A stretch of 64,000 nucleotides of DNA from Flammeovirgaceae bacterium (GTDB taxonomy: Bacteria; Bacteroidota; Bacteroidia; Cytophagales; Cyclobacteriaceae), in NCBI GenBank assembly GCA_044507775.1, contig JBIQIY010000021.1, positions 22,766 to 86,765 on the forward strand. The letters are read 5' to 3'. The translations under genes and the position numbers were made by a program. The notes beneath the pieces were generated by a model. It was given only the letters and a program-made list of their open reading frames with translations. It did not search any database and was not told where the DNA came from. Every line of letters starts with the position of its first letter. Within the stretch, counting starts at the first letter, position 1. This document shows positions 56,511 to 62,755 of the stretch, piece after piece.

Positions 56511-56736
56511 TTCGAGGGAATGCTGTTGCGCGATGGAGACAATGGCACAGGACCGAAGGCCTATCTCAATTGCCTGTATGTTGACCGCAACCTCGTCTTG
56601 GCATCAAGAGGGTGTTCAGTTTTATCGGGAAAACTCGGCGGCATGGAAGCCTGATTATGAGCGCCAATTAAAGCAAGGTAAGGTTAAGAACGAAGCGGAA
56701 TATATTCAGAAGAAGGTCAATGGGTTTATGAATTAA
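56511..56736 (+). pseudogene. Chimeric RHS relic: 81 bp linker fragment fused to the last about 44 codons of a toxin tip
   Basis: 56511-56591 aligns with 58040-58120 (FEGML.RDGDNGTGPKAYLN.LY.DRN); another frame then ends ..EAEYIQKKVNGFMN* 5 bp before an immunity-like gene. Confidence 0.65.
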
Positions 56737-56741
56737 GAGTT

Positions 56742-57290
56742 ATGTGCAGAATTATTTTAATCGTCTTCGCGATAACACTTACGAACTGTGATTCACAAAA
56801 TAGCAGTTATTGGTTTAGAGAGGTTGATAAAGGAAATGTGACGCTCGTTCCTATTAGAATTAACAAGGGACATGTGGAAGGTGATTCATTTTACTTTGTC
56901 TACGTAAAGAAAAATCACGATACTACTCGCTTTGTGTTGTCGTCTAGCGAAGATGGGTTGAATTATTTTATTGAAGACAGCGACACAACGAGACTTGCAC
57001 TAAAGGATAAGCGAACCTATCATATTGGGAACAAAGAGCATGGGGTGTATAAGCTGTATGGAAATGAAAAGGAAGCAGATGGGTTACTTGTGTATTTTTG
57101 GTCTCCGGAGTTTGGAATTCTGCTCTCAAGCATCCCCAATTGGAAAGAAAGTAGATTATTGATTTGCAATGAAACGAAGGATGAGTGCGAGACCATACAA
57201 GCCTTGCAGCAGTTGATTACGACCGATTTTTTTTCTCTTGAGGTACCAAGAAGAGAAATCGATTTTGTTGAACCTAAGGTGGAAAACTAG
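56742..57290 (+). CDS. Putative orphan immunity lipoprotein
   Basis: Lipobox LTNC; AT-rich; follows the toxin-tip relic. Confidence 0.7.
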   Translation: MCRIILIVFAITLTNCDSQNSSYWFREVDKGNVTLVPIRINKGHVEGDSFYFVYVKKNHDTTRFVLSSSEDGLNYFIEDSDTTRLALKDKRTYHIGNKEHGVYKLYGNEKEADGLLVYFWSPEFGILLSSIPNWKESRLLICNETKDECETIQALQQLITTDFFSLEVPRREIDFVEPKVEN

Positions 57291-57342: not shown

Positions 57343-57653
57343 TCACTTCGCGTAAGCCTTTTTCGTTTTAAAATCCCTCAGCGCCATATCGATCATGTTA
57401 AGCAGGAAGTTCTTATTATCCTCTGGCAGTGACGAAATATCTTCCATTCTGCGCATGGTGTCGGCGTCGAGCACCATTTTAGTTTTACCGATCAGGTAGT
57501 CAACGGAAAATTCCAGGGCATCGACAATTTTTGCAACCGCCTCGATGGAAGGCGTGATATTACCATGTTCATACCGGCTGGTCACATGGCCAGATGTGCC
57601 GATCTTTTTTCCGCGCCTTGGCTTTCGACAAGCCTTTTTTTTTTGCGCAGTAA
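57343..57653 (-). pseudogene. XRE-family HTH regulator, 5'-truncated and frameshifted
   Basis: KKIGTSGHVTSRYEHGNITPSIEAVAKIVDALEFSVDYLIG..ISSLPEDNKNFLLNMIDMALRDFK; LRKKKGLS lies in a different frame across an A10 tract; no start codon. Confidence 0.78.
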
Positions 57654-59185
57654 CCTTTACAACAAAAGAGGAGACCGACGAAGCTACGGCCACGCTGGAA
57701 ACGGCGCAGGCCAGTGAAGAAGAGAGCGAGTTCCTGAACTATGACGAAGTGCGCAAGATAGACAGCCGGTTGTTCGACCATACGGATAACGGAACGACCC
57801 ATAATTCGGTCCGACTGATGGGAGGTAACAGCACGGAGGTCTATGGATTAGCCAGATCGATCAGTGTCATGCCAGGTGACAGGATAAACGCTGAAGTGCA
57901 CGTCAAATACCTGGATCCTGAACCTGCGAACTGGAGTACATGGTTGCTAGACGCCCTTGCATCCCTTACGGGGGTGCCTGATCCGGAAGGCACGTTTGTC
58001 GATGGCGGCGCTGTTGGTAATATAGACGGAGTCTTTCCATTCGAGGGAATGCTGGTGCGTGATGGAGACAATGGGACGGGGCCCAAGGCCTATCTCAATT
58101 ACCTTTATTTTGATCGCAACTATGAATTCATTACCGGTGGCTTCCGGCGGGTAAGTACAGCGGCGCGAGAAGATGGGGCGGGAGAAGATGAGGTCGAAGG
58201 CATTGACCACGAGCGCCTGTTTTTTGAAAACATCTCCATAACGGAGCCAGGATATGTATATATTTACCTGAGCAACGAGAATGAAAGTCCCGTTGAGGTG
58301 TTCTTTGATGACTTTAGTGTGGAGCATATCAAGTCGCCAGTGGTGCAGGTGGATGATTACTATCCGTTTGGTTTAACGTTCAACTCATATCAAAGGGACA
58401 ATTCTGTGGATCAGCGGTGGAAATTTCAGGGGCAAGAGCACCTTGATGATCTCGGGTTGAATTGGGATTCATTCAAGTGGAGAAATCATCAGCCCGATAT
58501 TGGAAGATTCTTTAATGTCGATCCCCTTGCTAATGAGTACGTTTATAATAGTCCCTACGCCTTTAGTGAGAACCACGTCACATCACATATTGAATTGGAA
58601 GGGTTGGAAAAATTAAGTATAAAAAACATCGACAACTCACCCGGTATCATCCAAGGACCTTGGGCAAACGTTGCTACGGCACTGGCATATGGTACCACAA
58701 ACACAACCCCTGAAGGTTTCATAAGGAGTTCAACAATGCGACAGAGCCGAGTTACAAAACTGGAGAAAGGAAATTTCAAAGGCCACCCTGAGGGCATTGT
58801 CCTACATCGTACCGTAAATAGTTCAACCGACGAGACAATTGATGTTTTCAATAGCAGAGGTTTTGGGACTCACTTTGTAGTTGGGCCCGATGGGGAAGTA
58901 ACCCAAACAGCCAGTTTGGATAGATGGACACAACACGTTGGTAAACCTAAGGCGGGAAATCCAGGAAAAAGGAGTTCGAACACCGTTGGAATTGAAGTCG
59001 TTGGAAATTATGATTATGCGACAGAAAAGTGGGATCCCCTTACTGAGGAACAGGTAATGTCTGTATCCAACTTAGTAAATACTTTATATAAAATGTATGG
59101 ACTTTCCTACTCCGATGTCTATGGTCACGAAGATCTCTCGGCTAAAAACGCCCGGCGAGGGTGCGGTCGTAAAGGAGGCAATTGA
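57650..59185 (+). pseudogene. Orphan RHS cassette 2 with Amidase_2-like (N-acetylmuramoyl-L-alanine amidase) tip
   Basis: Linker, DYYPFG..DIGRFFNVDPLA..ELEGLE core, then IVLHRT, THFVVGPDGEVTQ, QHVG, NTVGIEVVG, VYGHED; no genuine start. Confidence 0.85.
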
Positions 59186-59214: not shown

Positions 59215-59742
59215 ATGAAAACGATTAAGCGCCTTGCAGTTTTAATTTTGCCACTAATGATTAATTGCACTAGTGGACATAACGAACAAGAACAAGTTGA
59301 TTCAGGTATGACAAGGAATGACAATCACGCCCCCGCGGTTAATAACGTGGATACCGTCGACGTTGATGAGATTGAGATAACCCGATCGAACCTTCAGATA
59401 GTGAAAATTGATGATACCCCCACGCTCAAAGACTCTACGTCAGAGTATAAAGAGGCATGCGTAAACTGGCGACTGGATGAGGAGGAAATCACGAAAATAT
59501 TCACGATGTCTAGAGTAATATCGGGCTCCGAGATGCACGATTTATACTATGACCTACCTTGCCGAATTCACGGCGAAGTAAGAATCGGGAAAGTATTGTT
59601 CAATTTTATGATAAATGGCGGTTCTTTTGCTTATGTGTACAATTCAAACCAGAACTTCTATCTGGGGTGTTCCCAGGAGAAGTGCAAAGACTTGTTTATT
59701 GAGCAAGGCGGCAATATAGAAAGAGACGTACCGGATTTCTAA
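59215..59742 (+). CDS. Putative immunity lipoprotein for the amidase tip
   Basis: Lipobox-like MINC; directly follows the toxin. Confidence 0.75.
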   Translation: MKTIKRLAVLILPLMINCTSGHNEQEQVDSGMTRNDNHAPAVNNVDTVDVDEIEITRSNLQIVKIDDTPTLKDSTSEYKEACVNWRLDEEEITKIFTMSRVISGSEMHDLYYDLPCRIHGEVRIGKVLFNFMINGGSFAYVYNSNQNFYLGCSQEKCKDLFIEQGGNIERDVPDF

Positions 59743-59760: not shown

Positions 59761-60738
59761 GTGATAATGCAGATAGCTAACTACCATCCGTTTGGACTGA
59801 CGTTTAACTCTTATCAACGCGAGAACTCTCTGGATCAGAAATATCTCTACAACGGAAAAGCGCGTCAAGATGAACTGCAACTCGGTTGGTACGACTACGG
59901 TGCGCGAACGTACATGCCTGATGTCGGACGTTGGGGCGTCACAGATCCGCTTGCTGATAAGTATTTCGATTTCAGCCCTTACAATTATGCCGCAAATAAT
60001 CCGGTAGTATTTATTGATCCCACGGGTGCATACATAACAATTTATTGCGAAGAAGATGGAAAAAAGAAGGAATACAGATATGAATCCGGGACAGCTTATG
60101 AGGGCAATAGCTCCTTCGTTGCTAATACAGTCGCTCAATTAGATTATTTGATCGCGAATGGCGCTGACGCGGTTGCTGAACTGGCAGGCAATCAGGAATT
60201 CAACTGGGGCATAAAATACGTTTCAATGGAACAGCTCCAAAAGAAAGAAGACCGCACACTAGGTGATGGAATAACAACAATGGGATTGGTGGGAACAAAT
60301 TATGCGCAAACATCTTATAATGATCTTGTCGGATTTGAAACGAATACCGGGGGCCATCAAAGCCCTAGCACAACTCTATGTCATGAGGCTGGACACGCAC
60401 GAATAAGTATGCAATACTACCAGCTTGCAAAGAAGTACGTTGAGACTGGTGATGAAAAGTATTTAACTCAAATGAACAGCTTGATGGTGGAAATGAATGA
60501 TAATAATTCACCTGGATTCTTAAGCAATGAAGAAAAGTATGTAAACGATACATACGAAACGCCTTGGGCGATCAAGATGGGTGAAGGAGTAAGGACTAGC
60601 GACTATGGGAATAGGGTATATCAGACGGCAGGCCCGTTTACTTCATATCCTGCTTCAACTCCAGGTCCGGTGAACTCACCCTTAGGGATAATACCGCCAA
60701 GCGTGTGGTTAAGAATTTACGGAAGCAAACAAAAATGA
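59761..60738 (+). pseudogene. Orphan RHS cassette 3 with HExxH metallopeptidase tip (M91/NleD-like)
   Basis: NYHPFGLTFNSYQRENS..WYDYGAR.Y.PDVGRW..DPLA..SPYNYAANNPVVFIDPTG, then SPSTTLCHEAGHA and NEEKYV..MGEGVR; begins just after the previous stop. Confidence 0.85.
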
Positions 60739-60742
60739 GGTC

Positions 60743-61123
60743 ATGAGATTATTCGCTTTTCTCTTTTTTTTGATGTCGGCTAATTGCAAAACGATTTCGC
60801 AGAACGAGAACGAATGCGATACTGTTTACCAAGTAGTTGATGAAGCACCTGTTTACAAGAACGGCCAAACTGATCTTATAGATGCCGTCAAGAAATTTCG
60901 GTTTTCAAAGTACTGCAAGCCTGAAGAAGTTAGGCAAATTACTTGGGTGCTGAATGCCAGTGGAAAAGTAATTAGTGTTGATGTGCTAAGTGCAAAAGGT
61001 GACTGTTTAAAAGAAATTGAGGAGCAGGCCAGACAGTTGTCGCCGTGGGCTCCAGGAAAACTTAAGGGTAAACCAGTGTGCGTGAAGGTGGTTATGCCGA
61101 TCAAAATCTGGCTGACGGATTGA
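60743..61123 (+). CDS. TonB C-terminal-domain-like exported protein in the immunity position
   Basis: Signal peptide/lipobox SANC; VYQVVDEAPVYKNG, WVLNASGKV, PWAPGKLKGKPVCVKVVMPI; lacks the TonB Pro-rich linker. Confidence 0.7.
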   Translation: MRLFAFLFFLMSANCKTISQNENECDTVYQVVDEAPVYKNGQTDLIDAVKKFRFSKYCKPEEVRQITWVLNASGKVISVDVLSAKGDCLKEIEEQARQLSPWAPGKLKGKPVCVKVVMPIKIWLTD

Positions 61124-61127
61124 ACCG

Positions 61128-61949
61128 GAGGGGAATAATTATTATCCGTTTGGACTGACGTTTAACTCGTATCAAAGAGAAAACTCTCTCGATCAGAGAT
61201 ATCTCTACAACAGCATGGAACTCCATGACGAACTCAGTTTGAATTGGTTCGATTATGGAGCAAGGATGTATATGTCGGATATTGGACGGTGGGGAGTAAT
61301 CGATCCGCTATCAGAAGTGAGTAGGCGCTGGAGTCCATATAACTATGCCTTCAATAATCCGATGCGATTTATCGACCCGGATGGCATGTTAACTTACGAT
61401 TGGGTTCATGGTATGTATGTGGATGAAAGTGGAGAACAAGTTAATCAGATAGATGCGATGCAGCAGATTCATAGTGTCGGGGAGAGAGTTCATATTTCGT
61501 CGGGTAATAGGGATCCGCGGGAAGTAAATGAAGGGCGGGATAGTGATTTTGCAAGAGGCCAAGCCCAACAAGGGAGTCTATCTGTATTACAAACTAATAG
61601 CGAGACATTCTTAATAGCTTCTGGCGATTGCTGTGGTGATGGAGAAAAGGCGATTCAATTATTAAAGAATGAGATAAATGAGCTTGAGAAACTTTTTGAA
61701 GAAAAGACGGAACCAGTTCGTAAGGTGCTTAATAATATTCATGAGTGGTACACGCCTGCCCATAAAGAAGCATTAGAAGAACTTGGTATCGATATTTTTG
61801 AAAACCTACCGCAGATTGATAAGTATTTCAAAAATGGGGACCAGGTGTACCATTTTTCCCGCCTCCTGGAAAAGATTCTTTTCGTCCGCCTTCGGATAAT
61901 ATTTTACAACTTGCACCAAAATAATAAAAATATAAGTCCTATTGTATGA
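61128..61949 (+). pseudogene. Orphan RHS cassette 4 with uncharacterised tip
   Basis: EGNNYYPFGLTFNSYQRENS in frame upstream of ORF 61215; WFDYGARMY..SPYNYAFNNPMRFIDPDG; tip 61386-61949. Confidence 0.82.
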
Positions 61950-62755
61950 GGATGGAGATTGATAAAAAGTACTTATCTTTTTTAGATGCAATAATAGCGT
62001 GTGTTGTCCTTGTAGTACTGGGCGTATTTTTAAAATCGTTCCTTCCATGGATTTATGGGGATATACTTTTATATCCTGTTTCAAAATTCCTAATATTCAG
62101 CGCAATAGTTTATGGAGCAATAAAGCTGAGAAATTTGGATACTTCATATCTCTTTCCAAGAAAGAGATATGAAGGTCGTGTCTGGTATTTTTTTGTGATA
62201 ACCGTCTCCCTGTATCTGCTTCAAAGAATTACAACTGACATCATTAATTTGTTAAGCACAAATTCAATAGATTTTATAAAATCAAAAGGCACAGGGTTTT
62301 ATGGATTTCAATCGCGAGGTATTAACCACTTGTTTAGCTTGGTAATTATCGGACCAATTATGGAAGAAATATTATTTAGGGGACTGATTTTGAGGAGTTT
62401 CTTAACGCGTTACAGTGTGCAAAAATCGATTATTCTTTCTTCGCTTCTTTTTGCTTTTCTCCATGTTCTAAGCCCAGATAAATACATTTTTTCGACCTTT
62501 ATTTTTTCGTTTTTGATTGCTGCTTTCATAGCGTGGGTCGCCCTAAAAACGGAAAATATAAAAATTGCAATAGTATGCCACATGTTTTGGAATTTGTCCA
62601 ACTACTTTTTGCTTCCGTTCACCTTCATGATTTTAGCCATTAGGACAGAGACTATTGCTGACGTTATCGTTGCATTGTCGACAATGTGTATTGTTGCGTT
62701 TATCCTATTATCTGTTGGGTTGATTTATTTAAAGAAAGATTTGGTAAAGAACTAG
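61946..62755 (+). CDS. CPBP (CAAX protease/Abi) intramembrane metalloprotease-family protein, putative immunity
   Basis: GPIMEEILFRG, SLLFAFLH, HMFWN motifs; ATGA overlap with cassette 4. Confidence 0.88.
   Translation: MRMEIDKKYLSFLDAIIACVVLVVLGVFLKSFLPWIYGDILLYPVSKFLIFSAIVYGAIKLRNLDTSYLFPRKRYEGRVWYFFVITVSLYLLQRITTDIINLLSTNSIDFIKSKGTGFYGFQSRGINHLFSLVIIGPIMEEILFRGLILRSFLTRYSVQKSIILSSLLFAFLHVLSPDKYIFSTFIFSFLIAAFIAWVALKTENIKIAIVCHMFWNLSNYFLLPFTFMILAIRTETIADVIVALSTMCIVAFILLSVGLIYLKKDLVKN

Follow-up and report, generated by a model that had tools for sequence, protein, structure and literature searches.

A divergent Peptidase_M91-type Rhs tip and a TonB_C-derived lipoprotein, its candidate immunity protein, in an orphan cassette array of a Cytophagales bacterium

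The cassette and its two genes

We analyzed a window of 64,000 nucleotides (nt), corresponding to positions 22766-86765 of contig C28 in a Cytophagales assembly of 5.34 Mb and 58 contigs. Our subject is a pair of adjacent genes on the plus strand of this window. The first is an orphan Rhs C-terminal cassette ending in a putative metallopeptidase toxin tip. The second, here called the partner, encodes a short exported protein related to the C-terminal domain of TonB and is the candidate immunity gene. Features of the pair, in window positions, are as follows.

59761-60738, + strand: orphan Rhs C-terminal cassette, an open reading frame (ORF) of 325 amino acids (aa), containing GGHQSPSTTLCHEAGHA
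59761-60027, + strand: remnant of the Rhs-associated core (TIGR03696), the 5' part of the cassette, reading YHPFGLTFNSYQRENS...NNPVVFIDPTG
60016-60027, + strand: DPTG autocleavage-type motif at the end of the core remnant (residues 86-89)
60028-60738, + strand: toxin tip, 236 aa (residues 90-325), predicted to be a divergent Peptidase_M91-type domain
60382-60396, + strand: HEAGH (HExxH) motif of the tip
60553-60597, + strand: YETPWAIKMGEGVRT, in the tip, downstream of HEAGH
60556-60558, + strand: conserved Glu of YETP, candidate third zinc ligand, aligning with the M91 'EN' motif
60592-60594, + strand: near-invariant Arg of GEGVR (R193, at least 90% conserved)
60736-60738, + strand: TGA stop codon of the tip
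60743-61123, + strand: partner gene (immunity candidate), 126 aa, with its ATG at 60743
60785-60787, + strand: Cys15 of the partner, within its signal/lipoprotein leader (residues 1-15)
60824-61111, + strand: diverged TonB_C domain of the partner (residues 28-123)
C25, C58, C88 and C113 of the partner: cysteines invariant in the family alignment

The cassette ORF matched the Rhs_assc_core model TIGR03696 over residues 8-89 with 60.6 bits (cut-off 32.5). The core ends in a DPxG-type motif directly ahead of the variable tip, as in Rhs proteins. The ORF starts within the core, and the upstream YD-repeat shell is absent. Sequence searches of the PDB with the tip profile matched Rhs cores and returned nothing for the tip domain; the matches to Rhs/TcC cores were restricted to the 59761-60027 part of the cassette.

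In a single-sequence Pfam search, the tip matched Peptidase_M91 (PF14891) alone, at 14.4-15.2 bits, under the threshold of 25. We therefore relied on profiles. A profile of the tip only, searched against 1.84 billion cluster representatives, recovered 626 of them at E<=0.001. In these relatives, proteins of 200-2800 aa, the tip domain is always C-terminal, which is the architecture of polymorphic toxins. Pfam M91 was matched at E<=0.001 by 39 of 50 sampled relatives (best E 8e-21), and across the 50 the H, E and H of HExxH were the invariant columns, with no others. To avoid circularity, the close tip clade (four sequences) was kept separate and aligned alone against the M91-positive relatives with hhalign, which gave a probability of 99.9% and an E value of 1e-34. 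These data support the prediction of a divergent Peptidase_M91-type zinc metallopeptidase domain in the tip. The Glu of YETP may serve as its third zinc ligand.

The partner begins 4 bp after the tip stop codon. Its sequence reads MRLFAFLFFLMSANC, then K, then VVDEAPVYKNG, then WAPGKLKGKPVCVKVVMPIKI. Alone, it scored 19.2 bits (E 0.0017) with Pfam TonB_C (PF03544), under the cut-off of 24.6. Its family is tiny, with 10 proteins among 5.8 billion searched, and eight of these matched TonB_C at E<=1 (best 4.6e-6). In a tblastn comparison, the partner was 27% identical to the genome's own TonBs (E 2e-9). Because sequence searches of the PDB with the partner profile found no TonB, homology was established with hhalign on TonB_C domains of the same genome and by fold searching. 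The partner-family profile aligned with the profile of seven such domains at a probability of 98.9% (E 1.3e-17), over 96 columns covering residues 1-101 of the 103-column template. An AlphaFold2 model of the partner had a mean predicted local distance difference test score (pLDDT) of 82, with values >90 within the domain, and showed the order helix-strand-strand-helix-strand-strand (H42-50, E65-70, E76-82, H86-97, E105-107, E110-119). When this model was compared with the PDB by Foldseek, ∼20 of the top matches were the C-terminal domain of TonB, HasB, FusB or TolA-III, with weak scores (E 1.4e-2, TM-score 0.3-0.5). Together, these results support the partner as a true but diverged stand-alone exported TonB_C domain.

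The partner differs clearly from the energy-transducing TonBs of the same genome. Those proteins consist of an RNKxYGAY box, a transmembrane helix, a PPPPIDKPKPPPP spacer and the C-domain. Of the features that mark an energy transducer, the partner has neither the membrane anchor nor the Pro-rich spacer, and its YP..A...G.EG segment is replaced. Proline makes up 4.8% of its residues, versus 8.5-9.5% in the real TonBs, and no Pro-rich region is present. Lacking anchor and linker, the partner cannot transduce energy. Of the genome's ten TonB_C ORFs, it is the sole short lipoprotein-type member and the most divergent (42 versus 75-172 bits). Its cleavable leader ends in a lipobox-type LMSANC, and orthologues carry the canonical LLISC, FVGC and FCGC. 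The four invariant cysteines point to two disulfides, in keeping with a periplasmic protein, and on this pattern the domain is probably stabilised by them.

A preliminary description of the window, made from its letters and a list of its ORFs, had proposed that an HExxH peptidase toxin tip starting at 60028, with a downstream GEGVR motif, is followed after 4 bp by a short exported protein with TonB C-terminal signatures and no Pro-rich linker. These points hold up. Position 60028 is the first codon after DPTG, HEAGH and GEGVR lie in the tip, the peptidase assignment agrees with the hhalign result, and all the quoted partner motifs are present. The TonB-C fold that was proposed for the partner is likewise borne out by hhalign, the AlphaFold2 model and the Foldseek matches to TonB/TolA C-domains.

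Conservation of the tip-partner pair

Adjacent tip and partner genes were found at five independent loci, a small number: the window, L001/L002, L003, L007 and L012. Relative to the window, tip and partner are 67% and 43% identical in L001/L002, 66% and 41% in L003, and 63% and 43% in L007. At L012, the partner is 89% identical, and a remnant of the tip occupies L012:1-176. Over the conserved pairs as a whole, identities are 63-71% for tips and 38-46% for partners (89% in L012). The lower identity of the partners indicates that they evolve faster than the tips, as is usual for immunity genes.

Several of these loci show additional features. In the remnant at L012:1-176, the last ∼55 codons of the tip hold an in-frame stop (DYGN*ANQAAGP, the asterisk marking the stop), so here the toxin is disarmed and the immunity gene retained. 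Partner homologues with no tip occur at L008 and L010. At L013:1300-1739, a frameshift breaks a partner homologue of 44% identity into two frames that overlap; no tip lies upstream, and the gene appears to be a decaying orphan. Such orphan and decayed copies are typical of orphan immunity genes. Thus the partner behaves as the immunity gene that it had been proposed to be, with its 4-bp spacing, its synteny at five loci and its orphan and decayed copies.

A different architecture was seen in L001:152-1213 / L002:619-1680, which encode a protein (P0005) from one Bacteroidota metagenome-assembled genome (MAG). Its tip, 67% identical to that of the window, lacks the usual Rhs core remnant. Ahead of it stands an N-terminal region of ∼90 aa that carries a separate Sec signal peptide (MKSVYACLLLVILLLSFSVSAQQ). 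The whole is a secreted protein of 353 aa, and the TonB_C-like partner is still the next gene. This arrangement suggests that the tip may be deployed without an Rhs shell. With the tip behind its own Sec signal, self-protection would be needed in the periplasm.

Pairing with a TonB_C-like partner is limited to a narrow clade of tips, of at least 63% identity. The L004 tip, 53-56% identical and with the same insert, motifs and architecture, is followed by an unrelated exported protein. Unrelated exported proteins also follow the L006 tip (38%) and the L005 tip (32%). To look more broadly, we surveyed 401 Bacteroidota genomes and found 25 M91 tips in 20 genomes. The genes after these tips encode small signal-peptide proteins or lipoproteins of >15 unrelated families, and hidden Markov models of TonB_C and of the partner matched none of them (best E 0.41, versus 1.8e-13 for the positive control). 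The expectation that tip homologues would consistently be followed by a TonB-C gene is thus upheld within the narrow clade and fails outside it, at L004-L006 and behind the 25 surveyed tips.

Searches from the partner side gave a similar picture. The partner profile was run on 400 other Cytophagales genomes and detected no true family member there, the next match being a generic TonB_C at 71.9 bits versus 197.6 for the window protein. The 29 best loci in that search had no Rhs core or tip homologue within 1.5-kb flanks. About a dozen of them encode TonB_C proteins of the ordinary exported, stand-alone kind, 124-159 aa long, and such proteins of Cytophagales are a ready reservoir for recruitment. 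A related-locus search with the partner alignment yielded two metagenome loci, and one with the close tip alignment yielded nothing beyond one MAG already in the set.

One solitary protein merits separate mention. L051:1480-1896 (minus strand; contig C16 of genome G449) encodes a 138-aa exported TonB_C-like protein with the four-cysteine pattern of the partner family (KCDTIY..., SDCYK, DKCKEEL, TPVCCK). The gene is flanked by clpP and an amine-oxidase-like gene, and no toxin is close by. It could be an orphan immunity gene of long standing, or it could hint at another role for the four-cysteine subtype.

The orphan Rhs array

The cassette is one of several modules in tandem. Neighbouring features in the window are as follows.

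57545-59185, + strand: preceding module, a truncated Rhs core (Rhs_assc_core, 36.8 bits) with an Amidase_2 tip (1.9e-17)
59215-59742, + strand: immunity candidate of the preceding module, a lipoprotein (from the ORF list)
61136 onward, + strand: Rhs core remnant of the following module (Rhs_assc_core, 44.2 bits), beginning 13 bp past the partner stop
61215-61949, + strand: ORF with the tip of the following module, type unassigned (from the ORF list)
61946-62755, + strand: immunity candidate of the following module, a CPBP/Rce1-like membrane protein (Rce1-like, 1.6e-19)
58354, 59778 and 61136 (the last spanning 61136-61234), + strand: three copies of a 99-nt direct repeat (D1) in the core, 67-81% identical

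The modules are truncated at their 5' ends and have core homology in common, seen in the three copies of the 99-nt repeat; they thus form a tandem array. Like the partner, the immunity candidates of the neighbouring modules are lipoproteins or membrane proteins. The leaders of three of these genes (56742-57290, 59215-59742 and the partner, 60743-61123) end in x-N-C, reading LTLTNC, LMINC and LMSANC, respectively. Judged by the E. coli rule, Asn is an unusual residue at -1 of the apparent lipobox, and its use could be a habit of this locus or of the lineage.

At the head of the array, an 81-nt direct repeat (56511-56591 and 58040-58120; 88% identical) encodes the Rhs linker FEGMLVRDGDNGTGPKAYLN. 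Its first copy is a stranded fragment ahead of the lipoprotein gene 56742-57290 and marks an older, more truncated module. On the minus strand, a 116-aa helix-turn-helix ORF (57343-57693; Xre-like by eye) overlaps the start of the amidase cassette at 57545, which makes the true start of that cassette doubtful.

The genome has 12 Rhs-core matches, five of them on the contig of the window. Long Rhs-core open frames are found on contigs C19, C52 and C16, and a second orphan array lies on C4. The long Rhs proteins of C52 and C16 bear Sec signal peptides, and the N-terminus of the C19 protein looks, by eye, like TcB/SpvB. The second array (C4:147220-157350) sits at a contig end. One of its tips, at C4:155075-155980, has an HExxH motif (AIFHEMNAHIEN) and precedes an unrelated lipoprotein gene (155964-156533). 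Two others have hydrophobic C-termini rich in Ala and Gly and precede genes for small membrane proteins.

No parent full-length rhs gene was found upstream of the array in the window, where glycosyltransferase and membrane genes lie instead. Given that no full-length rhs core is close at the DNA level, the cassette is a spare orphan Rhs end-piece without a parent gene and is probably undeliverable as it stands. The genome also has no type VI secretion system (T6SS) sheath gene. The parent could be missing from the 58-contig assembly. Delivery by a T6SS was considered and rejected, as the genome is without VipB/TssC.

Interpretation and known systems

We interpret the two genes as a toxin-immunity pair, in which the M91-type tip would act in the periplasm or envelope and the TonB_C-derived lipoprotein would block it by direct binding. 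The toxin-immunity reading is well supported, and we put the probability of the whole proposal at about 0.8. The locus would be one module of a parentless orphan array of Rhs C-terminal toxin/immunity genes, and for delivery the tip would have to recombine with a full-length Rhs shell by way of the conserved core repeat; known Rhs systems swap tips by core homology (PMC3967940). Once delivered, the tip (residues 90-325), presumed to be catalytically active, would work in the periplasm or envelope of the target cell. The next gene would supply the cognate immunity protein, a periplasm-facing lipoprotein with a single TonB_C-derived domain that neutralises the protease through direct 1:1 binding. 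The module may be retained as a spare and to shield the cell from neighbours armed with the same toxin. Most likely, TonB_C was recruited in one narrow tip lineage as a small, stable and abundant periplasmic protein-binding scaffold. Such recruitment says nothing certain about the substrate of the toxin.

Several results weigh against this proposal. The tip clade of the window is without the M91-consensus 'HAxD' and has a ∼40-residue helical insert after HExxH, so the third zinc ligand is uncertain. AlphaFold2 modelling of the tip on nine aligned sequences gave a poor result (pLDDT 47), and the model was discarded after Foldseek returned noise only (best E 1.8); the fold assignment consequently rests on sequence profiles only. 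When the cassette core was searched across the assembly by blastn, it matched the next cassette only (72% identity) and no full-length rhs. A search of the genome for the T6SS sheath protein VipB/TssC found none. With no Rhs shell, no close recombination partner and no T6SS sheath, the toxin may be silent in this strain.

The strongest competing explanation takes the partner to be a non-cleavable substrate mimic, or decoy, of the TonB C-domain. The tip clade would then cleave or sequester TonB or the TonB-box regions of SusC-type transporters, or disable the TonB/TonB-box interface, stopping TonB-dependent nutrient uptake. The homology of the partner to the TonB C-domains of its own genome, by both tblastn and hhalign, is genuine, and its want of an anchor and linker would suit a decoy that transduces no energy. 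By analogy, the toxin would be expected in the periplasm, where TonB C-domains reside, and the antibacterial M91 tips have no known substrate (PMC13556075). Yet the pairing is narrow: behind L004, L005, L006, the second HExxH tip of this genome and the 25 M91 tips elsewhere, 0 of ∼28 partners are TonB_C-like. The partner is also the most diverged TonB_C of the genome, and with its YP..A...G.EG segment replaced and four cysteines gained, it does not suggest faithful mimicry. Moreover, immunity proteins of polymorphic toxins are generally unrelated to the toxin substrate (Zhang et al. 2012, PMC3482391). We therefore regard a decoy as unlikely, at odds well short of those for a recruited scaffold.

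It is less likely still that the partner is not an immunity protein, being instead an unrelated small TonB-family gene or accessory factor that lies beside the tip by chance, with the real immunity gene elsewhere or absent. Cytophagales commonly encode exported TonB_C proteins of 124-159 aa that stand alone, usually with no toxin nearby (no Rhs core or tip homologue within 1.5 kb at the 29 top-scoring loci), and the four-cysteine relative at L051 sits alone among housekeeping genes. Against chance proximity, the partner lies 4 bp from the tip, in the position held by the immunity candidates of all other modules of the array, and the space between the tip and the next cassette, which begins 13 bp past the partner stop, has no other candidate ORF. 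Furthermore, its family, set apart from the nearest generic TonB_C by 197.6 versus 71.9 bits, stands directly behind the tip clade at five independent loci.

Least credible is a colicin-like scheme in which TonB pulls the tip across the outer membrane of the victim by a TonB-box-like strand and the linker-less partner captures this strand, aborting import: the missing T6SS sheath gene and the Sec signals of full-length Rhs proteins do call for an import route into victims, and after DPTG cleavage the tip would start with a beta-strand, AYITIY, but the tip has neither a strict nor a loose match to the TonB box of its own genome (L.EVVVVGYGTQ, a consensus from 27 long ORFs), the N-terminal strand is part of the conserved M91 core (Pfam profile positions from 5), and relatives with the same strand have unrelated partners.

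As the likeliest account, then, we return to a recruited TonB_C scaffold that confers immunity. The divergent M91 sub-clade from Cytophagales and the TonB_C-derived immunity family seem to be undescribed. In the literature that we searched, neither an immunity protein of TonB_C fold nor a TonB-cleaving toxin is described, and 'TonB' is absent from the 2012 survey of polymorphic toxins by Zhang and colleagues (PMC3482391); the statement in the preliminary description that no such toxin target had been characterised is consistent with this. If the partner binds the active-site cleft, it would be a tractable small inhibitor for co-structures, which could show what is recognised by M91 tips. Were the partner a true substrate mimic, TonB, a hub of nutrient import in Bacteroidota, would be a previously uncharacterised toxin target.

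The founding member of Peptidase_M91 (PF14891) is NleD, a type III effector that is stand-alone, is injected and acts on host kinases. The tip belongs to the same Pfam family by transitive profile evidence and has the HExxH and a downstream E(N/T) motif in common with it. Here, in contrast, the domain would form the tip of an interbacterial Rhs toxin and come with an immunity gene; the similarity is remote (15 bits).

For the partner, the closest comparison is the TonB C-domain itself (PF03544; PDB 1U07, 2GSK, 6SLY, 6I97). Homology extends over the whole domain, with the same alpha/beta order, and W.PGK..GKPV.V...P is kept. The differences are the missing anchor and Pro-rich spacer, the replaced YP...G.EG segment, the four invariant cysteines and the lipoprotein/Sec leader. 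Another instance of TonB_C beside an HExxH peptidase, here outside any toxin setting, is provided by two BlaR1-like fusions in this genome (C57:62151-63716 and C4:17043-18794), in which a TonB_C domain ends a membrane protein with an M56 peptidase. These fusions illustrate TonB_C as a free-standing periplasmic module outside energy transduction in Bacteroidota. They differ in that a single membrane protein, presumed to function in signalling, contains both domains, and the partner is no closer to them (E 2e-7) than to true TonBs (E 2e-9).

In kind, the locus is known: it combines an orphan rhs-CT/rhsI module with an Rhs-M91 periplasmic toxin, and the cassette as such is ordinary. The orphan rhs-CT/rhsI modules of enterobacteria (Poole et al. 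2011, PMC3150448; Koskiniemi et al. 2014, PMC3967940) are likewise tandem units of truncated core, tip and immunity gene, with a common core stretch usable for recombination, and their tips and immunity genes also vary from module to module. Those modules lie downstream of rhs genes, whereas the array described here has no adjoining parent and no closely matching core in the assembly. In addition, the host is a member of the Cytophagales, and the immunity candidates are mostly envelope proteins.

The nearest counterpart of the pair is the M91 tip of the Rhs protein SED_RS06335 from SPI-19 of Salmonella Dublin. It was shown in 2026 to be antibacterial, to be toxic only if targeted to the periplasm, and to be neutralised by the downstream, periplasm-facing SED_RS06340 (PMC13556075). 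Both systems join an Rhs core to an HExxH M91-type tip, and in both the gene directly after the tip encodes a periplasm-facing immunity protein, putative in the present case. SED_RS06335, however, is a full-length PAAR-Rhs protein delivered by a T6SS, while the cassette here is a shell-less orphan in a genome without a T6SS sheath gene. The window tip represents a divergent sub-clade, under the Pfam cut-off and with a helical insert after HExxH. SED_RS06340 is membrane-anchored and was described through its transmembrane domain, whereas the partner is a lipoprotein-type TonB_C. That antibacterial Rhs-M91 toxins act in the periplasm is a very recent finding, and to these toxins the present locus adds a sub-clade of tips and a candidate immunity family.

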